DNA of 60,246 nt from a virus. Lineage: Duplodnaviria; Caudoviricetes. Under the pieces are notes generated by a model. The model was not told the origin of the DNA, searched no databases, and saw nothing but the letters and a program-made list of their open reading frames with translations. Positions 2,959 to 47,984 of the stretch are shown here, piece after piece. The stretch lies in IMG/VR virus record IMGVR_UViG_3300035670_000226, positions 1 to 60,246 of that record, one strand, 5' to 3'. The first letter of the stretch is position 1; the number at the start of each line of letters is the position of its first letter. The position numbers were made by a program, and so were the translations under genes.

Positions 2959-2967
2959 TTAATTTCC

Positions 2968-3270
2968 TTAGGATAGTTGAGCAATGCCCGACATAGTTGC
3001 CGAGAATTGCAGGGTTAGTTGGTTAACGCTGTTGTGGATAATGTGGCCTTCCACAATATCTCCCGCACTGTTGAAAACAGTAACGTTTGGTTTGAAGCCC
3101 AAGTTGTGAGTGACGGTCCATTGCGAAGCGGTGGCGCTTTGCGTGTGAGTGTACGAGATGAGTGGTATTAGTTGCTTTGAGGTTACTCTCTGCGGAACCG
3201 CAGGGAGAAAATCAGTGTCTATAACAGGGTATAGAGGGTCGACGTTAGTTTCTGGGTAAAACTCAGGCAT
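2968..3270 (-). CDS. Small tail-fibre-associated protein
   Basis: WTVTHNLGFKPNVTV motif, shared with the C-terminus of 1537..2958. Confidence 0.65.
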   Translation of the reverse strand: MPEFYPETNVDPLYPVIDTDFLPAVPQRVTSKQLIPLISYTHTQSATASQWTVTHNLGFKPNVTVFNSAGDIVEGHIIHNSVNQLTLQFSATMSGIAQLS

Positions 3271-4325
3271 TATAAGACCGCCGTTCCGACTCTATCGGTA
3301 AGGAAGTTTCCGCCCTTTATCTCAATTATCTCACCAGTCTCGTCGTCAACAGAGGCTATTTGCCAATAAGTGCGTTGGGCAATCCTCAGTGTTTGGTCTG
3401 CGGTTAAGGAGATAGTAGCGGTATGAGCGCTTCCCACAGCAGTTACAGTAAGAGCAAAGTTTTGAACAATGTACTTGCTTCCTCTTTGGTTTAGGAGGCG
3501 AGCGATAAAGGACTTGTCGGTGAACACACCGCTGAAAGTTACGGTGCCAGAGTAAGCAACCCCCTGGTAAGCGGTAAGTTCGCCACCCTCGGTAGGCCAT
3601 ACAATTGCTGCATCTCCGTAAGTAGGAAGCGGTAGGTCTGCTCGTTGTGGGTGAGACCTGTCATCAACTTCCTGTGGCTTGTATACAGGCACGTATCGGT
3701 TAGTCATCTTAGAGATGCGTCTCAGAGTGAATACATCGATGCTGTACATACCGATGCCCAGCTGAACACACAGCTCACGGTATTGAGATTGACGGGCCTC
3801 AATCATCTCCATAAGCTGGCGATAACGCTCAGAACGTGGGATGGTGACACCATCTGGGGCAAAGATGTTGATGTCAAACGAAGCATCGGTAGCCAGGGTA
3901 TAAAGCGCTAGGGTAGTAGCGTACAAAGCTACTGGGTACTCTTCAATTACAGGAAGATTTTCTAGGGTAATCCGTCTTCCCAAAGCGTCTACGTCACGCC
4001 CAGAATGCTGAGTAACCGCAGTCTGAATGACATTTTCTAGTTCTGTAGTGGTGAAGTACCTGTAGTAGTTGCCAGTTACAGTGAACTCATCATCAATGTC
4101 TGGAAGCTCATCTAGGACAAGTACGCCAGTCTGCTCTTCAATCTCGCAACTGTTGGAGATGTCTATACCGTTTTTAAAAACCTGCACATTTGGTGCGTCT
4201 ACAGGAGCGTAGTTAAGCCTGTATCGGTTAGTGCTAATGTCTGAGATGAATTGAGTAACGAAAGACTTTGGCATATCGCCAAGTTCAAACCGCACTCGCT
4301 CAACTAGCGAAGACAGAGTAGCCAC
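3270..4325 (-). CDS. Putative head-tail connector/neck protein
   Basis: Position after capsid genes; N-terminal LVERVRFELGD helix typical of adaptor proteins; GGAGG SD. Confidence 0.55.
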   Translation of the reverse strand: MATLSSLVERVRFELGDMPKSFVTQFISDISTNRYRLNYAPVDAPNVQVFKNGIDISNSCEIEEQTGVLVLDELPDIDDEFTVTGNYYRYFTTTELENVIQTAVTQHSGRDVDALGRRITLENLPVIEEYPVALYATTLALYTLATDASFDINIFAPDGVTIPRSERYRQLMEMIEARQSQYRELCVQLGIGMYSIDVFTLRRISKMTNRYVPVYKPQEVDDRSHPQRADLPLPTYGDAAIVWPTEGGELTAYQGVAYSGTVTFSGVFTDKSFIARLLNQRGSKYIVQNFALTVTAVGSAHTATISLTADQTLRIAQRTYWQIASVDDETGEIIEIKGGNFLTDRVGTAVL

Positions 4326-19481: not shown

Positions 19482-19712
19482 CTACTCCTCAGTTAGAGGT
19501 TCAGCAACAGGTTCAGTATACCGAATTGTGTCAAGGTATGCACTAATTGAGTGGTATGTTGCATCAAAAAATGCACCAGTGTGTGCAAGCAGGTCGCACA
19601 CGTGGGTGTCAGGCTCACGACCATAAGACTGACTCAAATACTCTTCTAGTGCTGGTCCAAAAGTTTCTACAAACTGCTTTGGACTCATGTAGGGCGGATT
19701 AGTGAACGGCAT
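19482..19712 (-). CDS. Hypothetical protein
   Basis: Coupled to hsp20 stop. Confidence 0.6.
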   Translation of the reverse strand: MPFTNPPYMSPKQFVETFGPALEEYLSQSYGREPDTHVCDLLAHTGAFFDATYHSISAYLDTIRYTEPVAEPLTEE

Positions 19713-20236
19713 TAGTTAATCTCAATCTGCTTAGGCTTCTTCTCCTCAGGGAGCTCAAGCTCTAGCATAATGGTTAACAGACCATCTTCAAGCTTGGCGC
19801 TCTTTACCTCAATGTACTCTGCGATAGCAAAGGTAGTGGTGAAGTTGCGCTGAGCGATGCCGTGGTGAATGACTTCGCCGTACTTGCCCTCTTCAGGGAT
19901 GTCGTTGCGGTCTTCAATGTCTGACCGCACCGTGAGAACACGGTCCTTTACAAACACCTCGACCTCTTCCTTCTTGAAACCAGCAAGTGCCATGGTGATG
20001 GTGTAGTTGTCACCAGACTTGGTCAGGTTGTATGGAGGGAAGGAGGGTTTGTGTTGGGACAACTCCTTGAGGGTGCTGAACACAGAGTCGTAGCCAATAC
20101 CCCAACGGTCAATGTTAGGGAATAGAGTGTAAATGGTAGCAGGCTTCTGGTCGACCTTTGCTGGGGTCTTGTAAGGCTGCTTTGGTGGGTAGTGGTCGTG
20201 GTTATCCCACTGTTGGAATTCAGGATTTCTAGACAT
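19712..20236 (-). CDS. hsp20: Small heat-shock protein (Hsp20/IbpA-like)
   Basis: FPPYNL, ALAGF, HHGIAQRNF..TF, AKLEDGLLTI.L...PEEKKPKQIEI. Confidence 0.93.
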   Translation of the reverse strand: MSRNPEFQQWDNHDHYPPKQPYKTPAKVDQKPATIYTLFPNIDRWGIGYDSVFSTLKELSQHKPSFPPYNLTKSGDNYTITMALAGFKKEEVEVFVKDRVLTVRSDIEDRNDIPEEGKYGEVIHHGIAQRNFTTTFAIAEYIEVKSAKLEDGLLTIMLELELPEEKKPKQIEIN

Positions 20237-20322
20237 AGTATCTCCTTAGACGATACGTGCCTCAAGCATCCCTGCCCGAAGCACAGGTTGTGTATGAACA
20301 CCCAGTTAGCGTGTTCGATAAA

Positions 20323-20371
20323 ATTCTAGCACTAAATCTATATTTGTAGCAGTGTAGTGATACAAATATAG
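20323..20371 (-). promoter_or_regulatory. hsp20 promoter (TGC-TAGAAT) with an 11-bp inverted repeat over the -35 region
   Basis: ctatatttgta-N12-tacaaatatag at 20338-20371. Confidence 0.5.
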
Positions 20372-20407
20372 TTTTCAATAAATAAAGGTTATTGTCTGTT
20401 TAATGAA

Positions 20408-20732
20408 AATGGGGCCAGACCTGCCGCAGCAGTGGGTCTGGCCCCCAGCCGTTAGGTCTTGCGGTTACTCGGATTTCTCTCTGCATAGCCGTAAACGGGT
20501 TTGTTACTGTAGCAAACCGAGTGGACTAAGTGTGTAGTTTCCCACACGCCGTGTTCGGCCTTGCCGTGGGCAGTCAGGCGACGAAACCTGAATTACGCCC
20601 TCGTCTAGGCCTGCCCTATTCCGATACGCACCTCGGAAAAACAGTGTCAGGTTATCTGCAGTTCGCCTGAACGGATATGTGACCTACACCGAAAGGGGGA
20701 AGGGTGTTATCAGGGATAACCCCGTCGTTCAT
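20408..20732 (-). ncRNA. Putative ~310-nt structured non-coding RNA
   Basis: No ORF in track; TATACT -10 at about 20738-20743; at least 7 helices; GC-rich terminal hairpin plus ATTTT. Confidence 0.65.
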
Positions 20733-20744
20733 ACTTAAGTATAG

Positions 20745-21086
20745 CTAATTATCCTTAAGTAAGTACGCCACTAAATCAGGGTTGTCTCGCAGAACCATCA
20801 GCAAAGAGTTTTCCCAAATACCAATAAAGTGATGTTCCCAGTCTTCAAAGCTTGCTGACTTATTGGGTTTCGTTTGATTTTCAAATACCATGCGAGCTGC
20901 ATGCATAAGTTCGTGCAGAAGTGTCACGGTCTTTTTGCTGGGGTGAATGTCTTTGTCAATTACAATAGTGTTGTGTGTATCCAATGTATAGCCATAGCTA
21001 CCATCGTTTAGCATGCCGTCTTCTTTTTGGGAGCGCTCAACTACATCAAAAACTTGAGTACCAACTTTGATGCGTTTGGGAAGCAT
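20745..21086 (-). CDS. HExxH zinc metallopeptidase-like protein
   Basis: TLLHELMHA. Confidence 0.75.
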   Translation of the reverse strand: MLPKRIKVGTQVFDVVERSQKEDGMLNDGSYGYTLDTHNTIVIDKDIHPSKKTVTLLHELMHAARMVFENQTKPNKSASFEDWEHHFIGIWENSLLMVLRDNPDLVAYLLKDN

Positions 21087-26505: not shown

Positions 26506-26802
26506 ATGCCTAGTAAGAAGTATTGGAAGATGCTAGACACTGACCACCCTGCTTGTGTGAAGAACACAGCCGCTCTAGCCAGCCTGTCCACTAACTATGA
26601 CTTTCCTTCACCATTCAGTCTGTTCCTAGACCTGATTGGTTGGAGCGAAGACAACCTCGGTGAGAGGTTGTATCAACTAGATAGTCTGCACCTTGACTAC
26701 CTAGCTGGAAGCTACCTCGGTAGTGCTCTGTCTGAGTATTCAGACAAGCCTGACGAGGTTACAGCTTGGGTCACCAAGCTGTGTGCAGAAGAAACAAAAT
26801 AA
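26506..26802 (+). CDS. Hypothetical early protein
   Basis: GGAGGAG SD. Confidence 0.6.
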   Translation: MPSKKYWKMLDTDHPACVKNTAALASLSTNYDFPSPFSLFLDLIGWSEDNLGERLYQLDSLHLDYLAGSYLGSALSEYSDKPDEVTAWVTKLCAEETK

Positions 26803-26824
26803 CAACTGTTCTAAGGAGGACACA

Positions 26825-28591
26825 ATGAGCACAACGCTGCTCACCAAGAGCGACATAATCTTGTCGACTCACGCATCAAGTTACATCCGTATGCAACTTG
26901 ACGGCCACAGGCGTTACCCTGGTGCTGTCTCTGTGTACGGAGATGACCCTGTAGACCTTGACAAGGTTCACAGCGACCCTAACGAGGCTAAGGACTACGA
27001 CAGCCTTGTGCAGACCACTCGTTGGCTTCTCAAGTCTTTCGAGCACGCCGAGCACATCATTAGGAACAAGCACAAGTTCATTGCCCTAGCTGAAGCTAAT
27101 GACGACAGCGTGTCAGTGACCTTCAAGCACGCAGGCATTGTTTCTGTGTGGGATTCAATGCGAGGTACTGATAGCAGGTTGCTCAACATCAGAGCATCTG
27201 CAGTTGGTAAGCTGCTTGAGCCTTACGCAGCTCTGTTGTCATCCGACCACCCCACTGCAATTAGGTACAAAGACTGGGGCTCAAGCGTGTGGGTGTTCAA
27301 CAACCCCAAGCTTCAGCAGAGCTATGTAGGTGACGCACACACACCTACACTGCAACGAGCACTGTGGCTTAGTAAGCGTAACAACTTACTCAACATGCTA
27401 GGCAGTGGTCAGCGTTACGAGACCAAGCGTGACCTAATGGTTGATGACACTCCTCGTATTGCTTTACTTGTACAGCCTGACCACCAGAGCTCAATCACAG
27501 TGAGTGACTTCCGCAAGTTAGCAACAGCAATGGATAGACACGCCAACCACAAGCCGTCTATCTATGACTTGCAGTCCATTCGCTCTGACCTACTCGGTGA
27601 GCAGGTAGCCCTACAACGACACGAGAGTGTTCAGCGTCAGGTCATTGCTCGTGAGAACTTCACCAAGTATTGGGACACACTCAAGCGGGCTATCCGTGAT
27701 GAGGCACCATCGCTTGTGGATGCAGAGCTACAGTGGAGAGAGATACCACTGCACCCAGCAGACACACCAAGCTCACGCACTTGGGGCATTGAGGTCGAGA
27801 CTGTTCGTGCTCACTTGGTTAACCGACCTGCTGGTTGGGACTCACGCTACGATGGCTCACTTCCTGATGAAGGTGGTAGCAGTTGTAACTGTGACTGTGA
27901 CAGCTGCTATGATGGTGACCACTGCAATGACAGAGGCAGTGACTGCTACGACGACAACGATGAGGACATCGAGTCGAGAGAGTTCGTCTCTCCTGTCCTT
28001 GAGAGCTTCAACTCTCGTGGTCTTCGTTCTATCTGTGACGAGCTACCTACCAGAGAGGAACGCACTGAGCCTGGCATCCATGTCCATGTCGGTGCCCGTG
28101 ACTTGACGATAGCAGATGTTGGTAGACTGCTAGTTGCTTACAGCGTAGCTGCACCAATCATCATGCCTCTCTACCACCGAGAGGTATACGGATACTGCAA
28201 GGAGACAGGCACTAGCACCATTCAGTCCTGGCTCAGTGCAGCTCGTAGGTATCTCAAGGAGCAGGGCAGACTGCCTCAGCCTGTAGAAATCTACAGCTCA
28301 CTAAGCAGTGACCGCTACCAAGATGTCAATGTCACAGCACTTGATAGGCACGGCACCATTGAGTTCCGTGCTATGGGTCCTTACTATGACTACGACCACC
28401 TAGTCCGTTGGGCTTGGTTCTGTCGTGAGATGGTCAATGTATCCAAGCTTGGTCTACCTCAGCAGGTATGGACACGGTGCAAGTCTGTACGAGATGTAGT
28501 CACCGTGCTTCGCAAGTACGGTTCAGAGTCACCGTTTGACAAGGACTTCTTGGCAATCGACACAGCATCACTCGTCTTACAAGACGACTAA
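26825..28591 (+). CDS. Putative amidoligase (COOH-NH2 ligase, glutamine-synthetase-like fold)
   Basis: TWGIEVE, EFVSPVL, GIHVHVGA, RYQDVN, GTIEFR; start at MSTT with AAGGAGG SD. Confidence 0.85.
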   Translation: MSTTLLTKSDIILSTHASSYIRMQLDGHRRYPGAVSVYGDDPVDLDKVHSDPNEAKDYDSLVQTTRWLLKSFEHAEHIIRNKHKFIALAEANDDSVSVTFKHAGIVSVWDSMRGTDSRLLNIRASAVGKLLEPYAALLSSDHPTAIRYKDWGSSVWVFNNPKLQQSYVGDAHTPTLQRALWLSKRNNLLNMLGSGQRYETKRDLMVDDTPRIALLVQPDHQSSITVSDFRKLATAMDRHANHKPSIYDLQSIRSDLLGEQVALQRHESVQRQVIARENFTKYWDTLKRAIRDEAPSLVDAELQWREIPLHPADTPSSRTWGIEVETVRAHLVNRPAGWDSRYDGSLPDEGGSSCNCDCDSCYDGDHCNDRGSDCYDDNDEDIESREFVSPVLESFNSRGLRSICDELPTREERTEPGIHVHVGARDLTIADVGRLLVAYSVAAPIIMPLYHREVYGYCKETGTSTIQSWLSAARRYLKEQGRLPQPVEIYSSLSSDRYQDVNVTALDRHGTIEFRAMGPYYDYDHLVRWAWFCREMVNVSKLGLPQQVWTRCKSVRDVVTVLRKYGSESPFDKDFLAIDTASLVLQDD

Positions 28592-28616
28592 CCACTAACG
28601 AATAGGAGAACATACC

Positions 28617-29780
28617 ATGTGTGGTATCGCAGGCTTTAGCCTATCCCCAAACAGCAAGGTCAAGACACGAGAGCTTGCTCATGAACTACTAACATCCATC
28701 GAGGACAGAGGTTACATGGCTTCTGGTTATGCTTACCAAGTCAATGACACGATGGGTTACTTCAAGGCTGCAGTGCCTGGCTCACAGCTACCGCTCAAGC
28801 AGTTGCCTAAGTCAGCACGGCATGTCATCTTGCACACTCGCCTTGCTACTCACGGTGCAGTGACAGACAATCGCAACAACCACCCTGTGTTGTCACCTAG
28901 TCAAGACATTGCTCTAGTACACAACGGTGTCATCTACAACCACCAAGAGGTACGCTTCAAGATTGACGGCGACCTACCTGATGTAGACACCAGCGTTATC
29001 CCTGCTGTCATTGAGCAGCTCGGTGTTGACTCACTAGATGTGCTTGACGGCGATGCAGCTATCGCATGGTTCAACCGCAACGAAGCTAACACCTTGCACC
29101 TTGCTAGGTTCCAGCACTCACCACTTGTCATGTGTCAGATTGAGGATGGCTCGTTCATCTTCGCTAGTACTGAGAAGTTGTTGTGGGAGGTTCTAGTTCA
29201 GCTTGACCTCATGCCTACATGGATGGAGACAGCTAAGGAGCTTGACTACTTCACAATTCGTGATGGCATTGTGCTCTCTAGTAGCAGACTACCTGAGCCT
29301 AAGCACTACAACAACTACTACGACTACAACTACTACCGTCACCAGACTGCTGGTGCTAAAAGTAGCAGTACTACGAGTGGTGCCACCTACAACATCTATG
29401 GCTCTCAGTATGTCGAGGGCTATGGTTGGAGCGAGTGGGATGACTTCGGAGAGGAAGACGACAGATACTTCTACGCTGAGTCATCATCAGACAATGTGAA
29501 TAACAACAGGGTTATCTCTATCCCTGAATACGAGGATGGGTACGAGGACAACATCATTCCCTTCACTAAGCCCGACATCAGTCGTGGCAAGTGGTACACC
29601 CGCATCCTTGAACATGGTGAGGAACAGACCGACCTCTTGGTGTACAACGAGGGACAAGTAGAGCAATGGAAGGATGAGCTGTATCTATTGTCAGATAGCC
29701 GCAGTAACATGACTGTCATTGACTACGGTGTCATCAGACGAGACGGCACTCTAGTGTCTGCTACTGAAGACATCTTCTAA
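28617..29780 (+). CDS. Class II (Ntn) glutamine amidotransferase
   Basis: MCGIAG, RG, LHTRLAT.G, NNHP, LVHNGVI.N, DTS. Confidence 0.9.
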   Translation: MCGIAGFSLSPNSKVKTRELAHELLTSIEDRGYMASGYAYQVNDTMGYFKAAVPGSQLPLKQLPKSARHVILHTRLATHGAVTDNRNNHPVLSPSQDIALVHNGVIYNHQEVRFKIDGDLPDVDTSVIPAVIEQLGVDSLDVLDGDAAIAWFNRNEANTLHLARFQHSPLVMCQIEDGSFIFASTEKLLWEVLVQLDLMPTWMETAKELDYFTIRDGIVLSSSRLPEPKHYNNYYDYNYYRHQTAGAKSSSTTSGATYNIYGSQYVEGYGWSEWDDFGEEDDRYFYAESSSDNVNNNRVISIPEYEDGYEDNIIPFTKPDISRGKWYTRILEHGEEQTDLLVYNEGQVEQWKDELYLLSDSRSNMTVIDYGVIRRDGTLVSATEDIF

Positions 29781-34246: not shown

Positions 34247-34567
34247 ATGGAAAGAAGTCTTGTCAAAGTTACTGATGCTCTGTGTGCTGAGGTAGACCCA
34301 GAGTTATTCTTTGCTCAAGACTCCATGAAGTATGGGGGCACCGCATCGTACATCAACGTCAGGTATGCAAAAATGCTGTGTGCTAGGTGCCCTCTTACTT
34401 ACTCTTGTCTTATGACTGCGGTAAAGAACACTGAGGAGTATGGCATCTGGGGAGGGTCAACTCCTAGCGAGCGCCGTCACATTCACACTAATGCAGACGT
34501 AGTAAAGTTCGTGTCAAAACTCAACGATGAGAACCGAGCTTTGCCTAGGCGCAAAAGAAATAGATAA
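34247..34567 (+). CDS. whiB: WhiB-family Fe-S transcription factor
   Basis: C.EVDPELFF...AK.LC..CP....C...YGIWGG; basic tail RRKRNR. Confidence 0.93.
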   Translation: MERSLVKVTDALCAEVDPELFFAQDSMKYGGTASYINVRYAKMLCARCPLTYSCLMTAVKNTEEYGIWGGSTPSERRHIHTNADVVKFVSKLNDENRALPRRKRNR

Positions 34568-34633: not shown

Positions 34634-36127
34634 CTAGTCTTCAATAGACTCTGAGATAATTCGAGTAGTTGCATCCTCATTTATAGGGTTCTGCATCTCT
34701 CTTAAAGCACTTGCACGGTCACCAAAAATAGCGCTCAAAACACCTCCGCTAGTCTCTCGGCTAGCAGTGATTTGAACAAACTCTTTGTTGCTTTCTAGGT
34801 CCTTCATATTGGACACTAACTTGAACAACCTGTCAATCTCTTGTGACACATTCGGGTCAGCGTATCCGCCACTCATTTCCTCTGCATACCGCATAAATGC
34901 TACCCTCTGGCCTTGCATCTCGATAATCGCAGTGAGCAAATCCTTCAGCTGTTCACGAGTTTTAACCTCTACCGGAAGGTTAAACGCACACATGTTATCT
35001 GGCTTAAATGCAGGGCAATTTGCAGCAACAAAACAGGTGTTACACTGCCTCAAAGAAGACTGCTGAGAACGTACTACAGCCACTTCTTTCAGGTTGTTAT
35101 CAGCGTCTACAATCGTCTTAGATTCAAACCCAAAAACAGGTAAGTTAACCTTTTCTGCAGGGTCTCTAGGCTCAACTTTTTTCCGCTCTACAGAACCCTT
35201 GTTATTAGAAGCCCCTAGGTCCAAATCCATCAAACCCGTATATAGAGACTCGTCGTTGTTATCTACTAACATCTCCTCAATTGATGGTAAATCGCCCTTG
35301 ATAACACGAAATCCGTTCTTCTTTTTATCTTTATCCATGCTCGCTTCTAACTGTAAATACGACCAAATAGCCACTTTAGTAGCCTCTAAAGTGTCGTCAG
35401 AGACAAACTTCTCAAAGTCTAACCCAGCATCACTGACAATACGAGCGTAACGTCTGCGAGCTTGGTCTTTCATTTTTTTAGGATAACGGACTAACTTACT
35501 TCCATCCCAAACAATGGTCTCTCCTCGTCTCATAGGAGAAATCCAAGACAAAGTGCTGGCGGTGTCGAACGGAATCTGACGTAAATTGTCAGGCTTGGCA
35601 GTAGCTAACGCATGAAAAGAAGTTCCATACTGAGCTTTAGCTGCTCTGACTAATCCAGAAAGAAAAGGCACATTCTCTATGGCAGTGCCAGGAATCGCCA
35701 CATTTTGGTATTGAGCTGCCCATTCTCCAACCAATAACGTGCTGTAAGTGTCATGCCAAACAACCCACATCTTCGGGTCATTTTCAAAGGCTGCTCTGTT
35801 CTGGAGTATCCTGGGCAATCCCCAAGCTTGACTATCAAACTCTACCCAGCCCTCTATTCTGTCGTAATTCAAAGCTACGAACTCTTCATAATTAGCTGCG
35901 TACTCTTCTAGCTCTCGCTTGGATAGACCTGCTTTGTCTGCTTGAGTGGCCCCTGAATCTACCCACACTTTCATGTCAGGAAGAAACTGCTCCCCTACCA
36001 TGTAGGCTTTAGTCTTAGGCAGACCTCGCTTACACAAGCCCCAATAGTTCAACATCACGTTGGTAACACCATTGCGTTCTAGCAAGGTGCGATTGCTAGG
36101 AATCTCTACGCCACCAAATATAAGCAT
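34634..36127 (-). CDS. TGT/DpdA-like TIM-barrel protein fused to a Cys-cluster C-terminal domain
   Basis: VWVDSGA, VVWH, VAIPG, FHALA, PFDTASTLSW; CNTC....NCPAF....MC. Confidence 0.6.
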   Translation of the reverse strand: MLIFGGVEIPSNRTLLERNGVTNVMLNYWGLCKRGLPKTKAYMVGEQFLPDMKVWVDSGATQADKAGLSKRELEEYAANYEEFVALNYDRIEGWVEFDSQAWGLPRILQNRAAFENDPKMWVVWHDTYSTLLVGEWAAQYQNVAIPGTAIENVPFLSGLVRAAKAQYGTSFHALATAKPDNLRQIPFDTASTLSWISPMRRGETIVWDGSKLVRYPKKMKDQARRRYARIVSDAGLDFEKFVSDDTLEATKVAIWSYLQLEASMDKDKKKNGFRVIKGDLPSIEEMLVDNNDESLYTGLMDLDLGASNNKGSVERKKVEPRDPAEKVNLPVFGFESKTIVDADNNLKEVAVVRSQQSSLRQCNTCFVAANCPAFKPDNMCAFNLPVEVKTREQLKDLLTAIIEMQGQRVAFMRYAEEMSGGYADPNVSQEIDRLFKLVSNMKDLESNKEFVQITASRETSGGVLSAIFGDRASALREMQNPINEDATTRIISESIED

Positions 36128-46811: not shown

Positions 46812-47653
46812 TATTCGCTGTACCCTTCGCACTGCTTGCAGGTTCCTCCAACGTTGTTGTTGCATGGAGGTTCGGAGTTAGTCTCAACCGCTGTAATCAC
46901 CTTTGCACAGTTATCAAAGATGTGTCGAACAAGCTCGTAATCTGCCTTGACTGAAAACTCCTTGTAGTCTTGGTCGGCCTTCAGCTCATACAGGAATACA
47001 ATCTCGTTGACTTCGTGACCCATACGCTTCATTAGCTCTAGGTACATCTGCCCCTGAAGAAGGTGCGAGCGGAATGGTCGGCGTACGTTTCGCCATGCGG
47101 CCATGAAATCCATCCCAGGCTCAAACAAGTCTGGTGACTCTGCTCGGATTGTTCCAGGTCCAATCGACTTAATTTCAATCAGAGTATCGTCACCGAGACC
47201 CTTAATCCAGCCATCAGTGTGCCCCTTAATTCGCAAAGCGTCATCGGACAAAGTAACTTCGGCGTACTCTAAACGCTTGTGACCACAGTGCTCACAGGTA
47301 TCTGGAGAAGTTCCCCAAGTAATTTGCTCGCAGGCTACACACTCAAACTTTCCGTGTAGTACGCCCATCTCATAGAACCAGTTCTGCCACTTAGCGTGGA
47401 TAGCGTGGCCTTCATCAAAGATGGACTGTAAGCGCAAGTTAGGGCGCTCTTGAATCTTTTGGTGACCCCTTAGAAGGAAGTATGATGCCCTACGACACCA
47501 GTCCTTCTTGATAATCTCTGATGGGTGCAGAACGTCTGTCCTGCGGTCGCCAGGAGGACGGGATAGTAAGTGACGCTCTACGTCTCCGACCAATCGAGTC
47601 TTCTTGTTCTTGGCTTCTAAAAACTTTTTCAAGTCAGTGTTCGTTACTGGCAT
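46811..47653 (-). CDS. Cas4/RecB-like PD-(D/E)XK exonuclease
   Basis: HPSE..WC, G.AIH, GHTDG, IEIKS, Q..MY, C-terminal C..CKQC. Confidence 0.85.
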   Translation of the reverse strand: MPVTNTDLKKFLEAKNKKTRLVGDVERHLLSRPPGDRRTDVLHPSEIIKKDWCRRASYFLLRGHQKIQERPNLRLQSIFDEGHAIHAKWQNWFYEMGVLHGKFECVACEQITWGTSPDTCEHCGHKRLEYAEVTLSDDALRIKGHTDGWIKGLGDDTLIEIKSIGPGTIRAESPDLFEPGMDFMAAWRNVRRPFRSHLLQGQMYLELMKRMGHEVNEIVFLYELKADQDYKEFSVKADYELVRHIFDNCAKVITAVETNSEPPCNNNVGGTCKQCEGYSE

Positions 47654-47984
47654 TTAGGCCCTCCCTTTCTTTAAAGATGTAGTCCTTTAAACTCATCTTA
47701 CCTTTATAGCTCTTTTGCCACTTTCGCACAAGTGCGTTACGTTCTCTATGCGATAAGCCTCCCCATATTCCATGCTGCTCTTCTGTCACCACCGCCTCCC
47801 ACAAGCAGTTTGCTCGAACTGGGCAAGGAAGGGTTCCTTTAGGGCCATTGCAGTATGTTTTAGCTTCTGCGGCTATTTTGTTATATAGAAGCTTGTCTCT
47901 CGGTGGATAGAATATCTCCGTGTCTGCGGTTGCACACTTTGCGTCTGCTCTCCAAGAAAAGTCAAGATTTTCGTCAAGTATCAA
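47634..47984 (-). CDS. whiB: WhiB-family Fe-S transcription factor (second copy)
   Basis: WRADAKC...EIFYP...AK.YC...CPVRANC...GIWGGLS.RER. Confidence 0.92.
   Translation of the reverse strand: MILDENLDFSWRADAKCATADTEIFYPPRDKLLYNKIAAEAKTYCNGPKGTLPCPVRANCLWEAVVTEEQHGIWGGLSHRERNALVRKWQKSYKGKMSLKDYIFKEREGLNASNEH

Follow-up and report, generated by a model that had tools for sequence, protein, structure and literature searches.

Between an open reading frame (ORF) of 113 amino acids (aa) and a small heat-shock gene, hsp20, the virus record IMGVR_UViG_3300035670_000226 carries a stretch of about 340 nt (positions 20408..20743, minus strand), which raises the question of whether it encodes one large structured RNA or a series of separate elements. 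We refer to the whole 60,246-nt stretch of DNA analyzed as the window. The initial annotation had proposed a single standalone multibranch RNA of about 310 nt, with its own promoter and terminator. The observation was confirmed, and its interpretation is partly supported: only the first ~120 nt, a domain designated M1, is common to all nine copies of the locus, and M1, judged from sequence comparison, is a real, as yet unclassified family of structured phage RNAs. The stretch is indeed non-coding, with no ORF of at least 60 aa (the longest are of 46, 44 and 31 aa), and its G+C content is 0.54-0.555, versus 0.385-0.48 in the adjoining segments. All the motifs listed by the initial annotation were located on the minus strand, at the positions given in Table 1.

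The conserved 5' domain and its helices

Relatives of the locus were gathered through Hsp20, which provided 48 loci from viral contigs and 80 of 138 from metagenome contigs. They were searched by nhmmer with the window RNA, and modules were mapped by nhmmer and side-by-side reading. Homologous stretches upstream of hsp20 were found in close relatives only, at loci L003, L004, L065, L066, L067, L068, L069 and L070 (L004 is the same contig as L050 and L062, and L002 ends at the 3' tail). A covariance model (R1) matched the M1 copies with scores of 86-146 bits and E-values of 1e-23 to 1e-41. The architecture of M1 comprises a long irregular hairpin of three segments (H1), capped by a hairpin of variable length (H2), then H3, an invariant CAC and H4. 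In H1, two of the four CCGTT/GACGG pairs have changed on both sides, in L069 and L070. The H3 stem TCAGG/CCTGA becomes TCAGA/TCTGA in L004, with an almost invariant loop. H4 has a different stem in almost every lineage (TTCCGA/TCGGAA, GTCCCT/AGGGAC, CAGCCT/AGGCTG, TCCCCT/AGGGGA, GCCTCGA/TCGGGGC and GCCCCA/TGGGGGC) around an invariant GTGCGT. The helices ACACC/GGTGT, TCAGG/CCTGA and TTCCGA/TCGGAA, which had been read from the single sequence, are exactly those that covary in the relatives.

On a plain MAFFT alignment of M1, 93.7% of the cells were paired and 12 of 26 pairs had changes on both sides. None of 500 shuffles reached the observed values for four of five measures, the fifth, further pair types, being reached by 110, and controls in which the partners were slid by 1-3 columns gave 29-42% pairing and no more than three pairs changed on both sides. 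Only the minus strand accommodates the G-U pairs (one pair is UG in 8/8 rows); their conservation there, together with the same orientation of the tRNA genes embedded in relatives, identifies the minus strand as the transcribed strand, in agreement with the initial annotation.

Folding energy distinguished the parts of the stretch less evenly. The whole stretch folded with z = -2.47 (2/100 shuffles as good), the terminal hairpin (T) with z = -4.44 (0/200 shuffles equal) and the 53-nt three-way junction (M2) with z = -2.93 (2/200 shuffles equal), whereas the 5' 120 nt (M1; z = -0.41) folded no better than shuffles and the 121-nt middle and 3' part (M3; z = -0.25) was also at shuffle level. Since the energies of M1 and M3 are at this level, the case for structure must rest on comparison, and it is the comparative sequence data, not energy, that lift the 5' domain and the terminal hairpin beyond chance. 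Across six sequences of T, 8/14 pairs have changed on both sides, seven of them from L005 alone, where the basal stem is exchanged pair by pair, and one from L004, where a single pair is flipped; the apical part, (C)TGC-TGCG-GCA(G), is invariant. The covariation analysis of relatives suggested by the initial annotation thus bore fruit for the M1 helices and was uninformative for M3, which, being 98-100% identical in its three lineages (the window, L003 and L067), holds no information on covariation.

Two further features of M1 may be relevant to its activity. RNAalifold paired GTGCGT with a 5' ACG as well as the CAC that follows H3; all the bases concerned are invariant, and the prediction suggests that this alternative pairing would compete with H4 or form a pseudoknot with it. 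The H3 loop holds a 6-nt palindrome in every copy: CTGCAG in the window (20661-20656), L003, L069 and L070, CTATAG in L065-L068 and TCTAGA, shifted by one base, in L004. The change from CTGCAG to CTATAG is the only difference between L065-L068 and L069/L070 in an otherwise identical 26-mer, and self-complementarity is kept. This pattern hints at loop-loop dimerization or at a palindrome acting at the DNA level, and would reflect one or two events only.

None of the 4227 families of Rfam 15 matched the window at gathering scores (cmscan), including Ms1, 6S, RNase P RNA, group I intron, raiA, GOLLD, ROOL, HEARO, OLE, tmRNA, riboswitches and self-cleaving ribozymes, as the initial annotation had anticipated in suggesting an undescribed class. 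A permissive scan (E <=10) of positions 20300-20850 yielded five chance-level matches, all to unrelated short families (12-18 bits versus cut-offs of 49-60; E-values of 0.72-4.4). Ms1, 6S and RNase P RNA, the first and last of which had been invoked on grounds of size, resemble the stretch in approximate size alone: no model matched even at this threshold and, unlike these RNAs, the locus is modular, with a conserved core of only ~120 nt. At gathering scores, 18 related loci contained nothing but tRNA and tmRNA genes, and positions 1400-2400 of L067, the longest array among the relatives, gave two chance matches by E-value. With ARAGORN, neither a tRNA nor a tmRNA was detected in the window, and the model of the conserved 3' domain of GOLLD matched neither the window nor any relative. 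A tmRNA was rejected, as the six frames contain no tag-like peptide and the stretch does not resemble the genuine tmRNA of L051. A group I intron or split gene was also rejected, with no second half downstream, no model match and equally short relatives of the upstream ORF. No member of the SpoVS family, a candidate partner raised earlier, was detected among the 13 neighbouring ORFs (Pfam and PHROGs) or, with PHROGs only (E <=1e-8), in the rest of the window.

The distribution of M1 appears to be narrow. No further copy of the RNA was found elsewhere in the window, and phage GenBank records contained no match to it or to the 11-kb stretch around it. A wider search of viral contigs with exact and degenerate M1 patterns returned known contigs only. 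A looser two-gap pattern yielded three new loci, none of which was scored by R1 even at E <=10, and these were considered chance matches; a degenerate H3 pattern was found at no place in genome contigs. R1, applied to 80 of 144 sources, recovered the nine copies and one noise match (L006, E = 0.55), the other 64 loci being searched with single-sequence nhmmer queries. Listings of the literature on phage tRNA-cluster RNAs and actinophage RNAs contained no description of the locus. The available text of an IMG/VR-based catalogue reports 10,006 unnamed candidate structured RNAs of phages and viruses, including tRNA-like motifs and terminators (PMC10690425), among which M1, M2 or T may already be listed.

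Probable promoter, exchangeable modules and terminal hairpin

In eight of eight sequences, the conserved start is preceded, at 7-10 nt, by a TATAAT-like hexamer (TATACT, TATAAT, TAAAAT or TAAAAA/TAACTA); in L004 and L067, this hexamer precedes an extra 5' hairpin. The gene preceding M1 varies between relatives and, as the hexamers occur at the same distance despite these different upstream genes, the unit very likely has its own promoter, as initially annotated. At the other end, no U-tract follows the T hairpin in L005 and L069, so T may be more than a terminator.

The cargo between these elements ranges from none (L066) to ~800 nt of other modules (L067), as detailed in Table 1. The Hsp20 proteins of these phages are 63-96% identical to that of the window, and the relatives with at least 90% identity have from 125 nt to ~900 nt at the locus; L065, L066 and L067 (90-94%) nevertheless differ most in RNA content. 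ARAGORN and Rfam identified tRNAs within the unit, tRNA-Asn in L004 and L070 and tRNA-Thr in L069, where an HNH endonuclease gene (1910-2359; phrog_2255, E = 1.1e-32; no match for this ORF in a Pfam search) lies between tRNA-Thr and hsp20. M2 is restricted to the window, L003, L065 and L067/L068, its second hairpin being tandemly duplicated in L065 and L067/L068; its stems have two substitutions, both one-sided and compatible with pairing (U-G to C-G and G-C to G-U). A 256-nt insertion in L003 and L067/L068, with ACTAAC at both flanks, sits in the apical loop of the GTTTG/CAAAC hairpin of M3, and GTTTGC...GCAAAC brackets the tRNA-Asn of L004. The insert contains a T-arm-like hairpin (CTAAG-TTCGATT-CTTAG); the presence of a tRNA was supported by neither ARAGORN nor the Rfam tRNA model (E <=5). 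Identity between the window and L067 is 83% for M1, 89% for M2, 98-100% for M3, 88% for T and 88% for hsp20, and this mosaic along the locus indicates that pieces were exchanged by recombination.

Table 1. Positions of features in the window, with the order of modules at each locus
Feature	Position	Strand	Basis or composition
Upstream neighbour, 113-aa metallopeptidase-like ORF (outside the RNA)	20745..21086	-	Profile matches
-10-like hexamer TATACT	20743-20738	-	Immediately follows the upstream ORF's stop codon
M1, structured domain of ~120 nt	20617..20734	-	In 9/9 copies; covariation
H1 segment 1, GACGG/CCGTT	20726-20722/20674-20670	-	Covariation
H1 segment 2, TTAT/ATAT	20719-20716/20678-20675	-	M1 model
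H1 segment 3, TGAT/GTCA	20712-20709/20683-20680	-	M1 model
H2, ACACC/GGTGT	20707-20703/20690-20686	-	Sequence; covariation
H3, TCAGG/CCTGA	20670-20666/20651-20647	-	Sequence; covariation; abuts H1
H4, TTCCGA/TCGGAA	20638-20633/20624-20619	-	Sequence; covariation; around invariant GTGCGT (20631-20626)
M2, small three-way junction	20568..20616	-	Fold energy; relatives
M2 closing stem, GGGCAG/CTGCCC	20616-20611/20573-20568	-	Sequence
M2 hairpin 1, GCCT-AGACGA-GGGC	20610-20597	-	Fold
M2 hairpin 2, TCAGG-TTTCGTCG-CCTGA	20591-20574	-	Fold
M3, weakly supported cargo	20447..20567	-	Contains the next two features
GAAA-loop hairpin, GTGTGG-GAAA-CTACAC	20547-20532	-	Sequence
ACTCGG/CCGAGT	20522-20517/20472-20467	-	Sequence; encloses GTTTG (20517-20513)/CAAAC (20503-20499)
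Long-range TAGGTC/GACCTA	20686-20681/20458-20453	-	Sequence
Long-range CCGTT/AACGG	20674-20670/20453-20449	-	Sequence
T, terminal hairpin and short U-tract	20405..20446	-	11-bp basal stem GGGGCCAGACC/GGTCTGGCCCC (20445-20435/20421-20411), then tail ATTTTC (20410-20405)
Downstream neighbour, hsp20 (outside the RNA)	19712..20236	-	Pfam HSP20, E = 2.5e-16; phrog_432, E = 8.1e-37
Module order, window			M1-M2-M3a-M3b-T (~325 nt)
Module order, L003			M1-M2-M3a-[256-nt insert]-M3b-T
Module order, L067/L068			M0-M1-M2 (second hairpin duplicated)-M3a-insert-M3b-M7-M6-M5-T (about 900 nt)
Module order, L065			M1-M2 (duplicated), directly into the hsp20 promoter region
Module order, L066			M1 alone, then T-rich tail; -10 box present
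Module order, L070			M1, then tRNA-Asn 4 nt on
Module order, L004			M0-M1-hairpin-tRNA-Asn-long hairpin-T
Module order, L069			M1-tRNA-like piece-part of insert-M6-long hairpin-T-tRNA-Thr-HNH endonuclease gene

Other small modules recur in these arrays. M6, of ~70 nt, was found in L067 (2168-2240), L005 (about 3403-3472) and L069 (about 1585-1653); its inner stem covaries (CTGGA/TCCAG versus CCGTA/TACGG), and it includes a small hairpin with the loop TGCAAAT and has no Rfam match. In a second shuffled module, present in a different order in L003/L067, L069 and L005, GGTTGG...CCAACC encloses a hairpin that covaries (CCTG/CAGG or CATG/CATG). L005 also contains a tRNA 5' half (2960-3013; acceptor strand and D-arm-like hairpin) immediately before tRNA-Asn, and a tRNA-like element (3625-3707) with a T-arm and an ACCA end that was not called by ARAGORN.

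Weighing the explanations of the locus

We consider it probable that the locus is a modular stable-RNA transcription unit of the phage, consisting of the conserved M1 core, exchangeable cargo and a conserved hairpin. A promoter directly after the upstream gene would drive the unit, which would be transcribed as one precursor. M1 would be the resident, vertically inherited core and would function independently as a small RNA, its H4 loop (GUGCGU) and the near-invariant palindromic loop of H3 offering contact surfaces for a partner or for self-association. The locus, if strongly expressed, would serve as a landing pad where recombination adds or removes tRNAs and other small RNAs. In copies with a tRNA behind M1, cleavage by host RNase P would release one from the other, as expected from what is established about tRNA maturation. 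We favour an independent small-RNA role for M1 because L066 keeps M1, the -10 box and a T-rich tail and has no cargo; the action of M1 in trans, within this explanation, is proposed tentatively, and we place it somewhat below an even chance. The M3 of the window may be cargo with little or no structure. Small stable RNAs other than tRNAs are also found in the tRNA gene cluster of phage T4, where they are co-transcribed with the tRNAs and released by processing; the likeness is one of description only, and the window itself has no tRNA.

Several points weigh against a modular unit headed by a structured M1. The family is small (nine copies in about six distinct lineages, all on metagenome contigs). 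The structure tested by shuffling was derived from the same sequences, and related sequences can beat shuffles without structure. The alignment fitted to the model gave 95.5% pairing, with 13/26 pairs changed on both sides, but it misplaces the 3' strand of the window's H4 on a neighbouring segment, such that the counts for H4 are imperfect. The minimum-energy fold of M1, at the shuffle-level energy reported above, differs from the covariation model except for H4. M3, about one third of the stretch, is unsupported beyond its unusual conservation in three lineages. No -35 box was found, and a strict sigma-70 scanner called no promoter at the start of the RNA. The annotated terminator stands as a conserved terminal hairpin, but its tail has only 4 U, and a strict terminator scanner allowing loops of <=8 did not call it. 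We infer the transcription, processing and 5' and 3' ends of the unit from DNA sequence: one sequencing run (X1), labelled metatranscriptomic and flagged 'probably DNA', contained 7% of the words, and its assembled contigs, which cover positions 20455-20506 and 20503-20730 and continue into an insert of the L003 type, are silent on expression and ends. Finally, M1 is always the 5'-most module, apart from the M0 of some copies, and always accompanies hsp20, which fits a cis-acting leader equally well.

Such a leader would keep RNA polymerase moving through the structured, untranslated cargo, protect the 5' end of the precursor or, through a switch between H4 and GUGCGU, gate read-through to the cargo or hsp20. 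M1 is the first module downstream of the -10 box, or the second, behind M0, in L004 and L067/L068, with the cargo always downstream and hsp20 following in the same direction in 9/9 copies; the GUGCGU pairing with the 5' ACG and CAC predicted by RNAalifold rivals or pseudoknots with H4; and, in L066, H4 is followed by a terminator-like T-rich tail. However, L066 carries no cargo in need of protection, every hsp20 copy comes with a -10-like box and leader of its own, T lies between M1 and hsp20 in most copies and the alternative pairing involves invariant bases only. We therefore regard a cis-acting leader as unlikely, albeit the most serious competitor of the modular unit.

The nearest analogues of the modular unit in lifestyle are GOLLD and ROOL, although membership of either family is excluded by the models and by architecture. 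According to the available text of two descriptions (bioRxiv 10.1101/2024.12.08.627333; PMC6582537), GOLLD is a phage-borne non-coding RNA of unknown function often found near tRNA islands, with one conserved and one variable half, tRNAs sometimes within the variable linker and an HNH endonuclease nearby in mycobacterial tRNA clusters. The available text of the former describes ROOL as encoded by phages or prophages, often near tRNA islands and of unknown function, with kissing loops that hold a homo-oligomer together (bioRxiv 10.1101/2024.12.08.627333). As in GOLLD, one domain is conserved here and the remainder is variable, with a tRNA-Asn inside the L004 unit and another behind M1 in L070, and an HNH gene at the L069 locus; tRNA adjacency is a feature of L004, L070 and L069, not of the window. 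Unlike GOLLD, which has a large conserved 3' domain and is often >800 nt long, the conserved part here is the 5' ~120 nt and the units span 125 to ~900 nt (~325 nt in the window). Unlike ROOL, which no model match supports here, the 3' parts of the locus are dispensable. The only hint of the homo-oligomers of these RNAs is the palindromic H3 loop, with its double change from CTGCAG to CTATAG.

These likenesses allow a bolder proposal, which we consider rather improbable: M1 would head a platform for small-RNA cassettes, analogous to GOLLD and ROOL in miniature, with self-association through the H3 loop, GUGCGU as a second contact and cargo in stem-flanked slots. The GTTTG(C)/(G)CAAAC slot is empty in the window, and holds the 256-nt insert in L003/L067 and tRNA-Asn in L004. 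If correct, this proposal would define a new class of phage RNA scaffold coupling RNA self-assembly to the delivery of tRNAs or tRNA mimics. GOLLD, ROOL and other structured RNAs that phages carry near tRNA islands are abundant and striking in their architecture, yet what they do is still unknown; the locus studied here offers a much smaller natural example, with a ~120-nt core and helices backed by covariation, and a natural deletion series in which the core occurs alone, with a tRNA or with many modules. The role of the core, and whether embedded tRNAs are cargo or partners, are directly testable questions at this locus.

The single RNA of the initial annotation would be a self-contained multibranch molecule of ~310-330 nt closed by long-range pairing of the 5' domain with the region before the terminator. 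The minimum-energy fold of the whole stretch does use the TAGGTC/GACCTA closure, with the z value given above, M1, M2 and M3 occur in the same order in the window, L003 and L067/L068, and M3 is more strongly conserved than hsp20 (98-100% versus 88% identity). By contrast, L065, L066, L070, L069 and L004 lack M3, and some of them M2, and keep M1 including (T/C)AGGTCA; the middle of the unit can accommodate a 256-nt insert and tRNA genes; and the energy signal comes from T and M2 alone. Because CCGTT pairs locally with GACGG inside M1, with the compensatory changes described above, and TAGGTC is kept without its 3' partner (in L065, L066 and L070), the long-range pseudoknot is unsupported as a conserved feature; on modelling grounds, the pairing is possible in the window's own sequence. 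We accordingly think a single RNA improbable, and the case serves as a caution that what looks like a convincing multibranch fold in a single sequence can consist of independent modules strung together.

We give no more credence to the idea that the window copy is largely a decaying remnant of a phage tRNA and small-RNA cluster, in which M2 and M3 would be functionless and kept by shared ancestry. M3 is supported by neither folding energy nor covariation, the window lacks tRNA genes altogether, tRNA fragments or tRNA-like pieces uncalled by ARAGORN occur in L005, L003 and L069, and indels, duplication and shuffled module order are common. Against decay stand the compensatory changes in M1 and T, the fold of M2 (better than 198/200 shuffles, with stem changes that keep pairing) and the identity of M3, which exceeds that of hsp20, the opposite of what decay would produce. 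A DNA-level element, such as a protein-binding or recombination site, is very improbable: the H3 palindrome (CTGCAG, CTATAG or TCTAGA according to the copy), the nearby 34-nt inverted repeat (20371-20338) and the status of the locus as a recombination hot spot would suit it, but G-U pairs are conserved on one strand only, the embedded tRNA genes share one orientation and the unit is framed by -10 boxes and a terminal hairpin.

Flanking genes and other elements of the window

The 34-nt inverted repeat has 11-bp arms and is located between T and the -10 box of hsp20. The window, L066 and L067/L068 carry this repeat and L003, L004 and L065 lack it; it was the source of the chance match to a microRNA model in the permissive Rfam scan. 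In every copy, hsp20 is preceded by an extended -10-like box of its own and by a 5' leader (about 20316-20237 in the window, minus strand) that is conserved in all relatives. The stem of the first hairpin of this leader covaries (GAACAC/GTGTTC, GGATAC/GTATCC, GGACAT/GTGTCC and AGACAC/GTGTCT) around a conserved loop, and the last hairpin, GTATC-GTCTAAGGA-GATAC (20256-20239), contains the Shine-Dalgarno sequence just 5' of the ATG. The leader thus looks like a candidate RNA thermometer of a phage small heat-shock gene.

The upstream ORF matched phrog_1233 (E = 8.5e-12) and the metallo-protease family phrog_87 (E = 1.9e-6), whereas its match to Pfam DUF6782 (23.6 bits) fell under the cut-off of 27. 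It aligns only to positions 7-112 of the 306-position phrog_1233 profile, and its relatives are equally short (115-139 aa), which together indicate a short form rather than a split gene. The intergenic RNA was not found behind the relatives of this ORF in L051-L061. In the more distant relatives L051 (24-322) and L053 (1-280), a tmRNA lies ~2.7 kb upstream of a homologue of this ORF (65-68% identity).

The window is a 60-kb virus record with an estimated completeness of 63%, and contains capsid, portal, terminase and replication genes. Hsp20 was uninformative on the host, its best matches among cellular genomes being proteobacterial metagenome-assembled contigs and genomes with <=44% identity. 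The two WhiB-like ORFs (34247-34567 and 47634-47984) suggest an actinobacterial host. An amidoligase and glutamine amidotransferase pair is encoded at 26723-29780. The tRNA carried by three relatives of the window is tRNA-Asn(GTT), a species that is normally modified with queuosine, and the window itself contains a queuine tRNA-ribosyltransferase-like gene (34634-36127; phrog_887, E = 3e-59).

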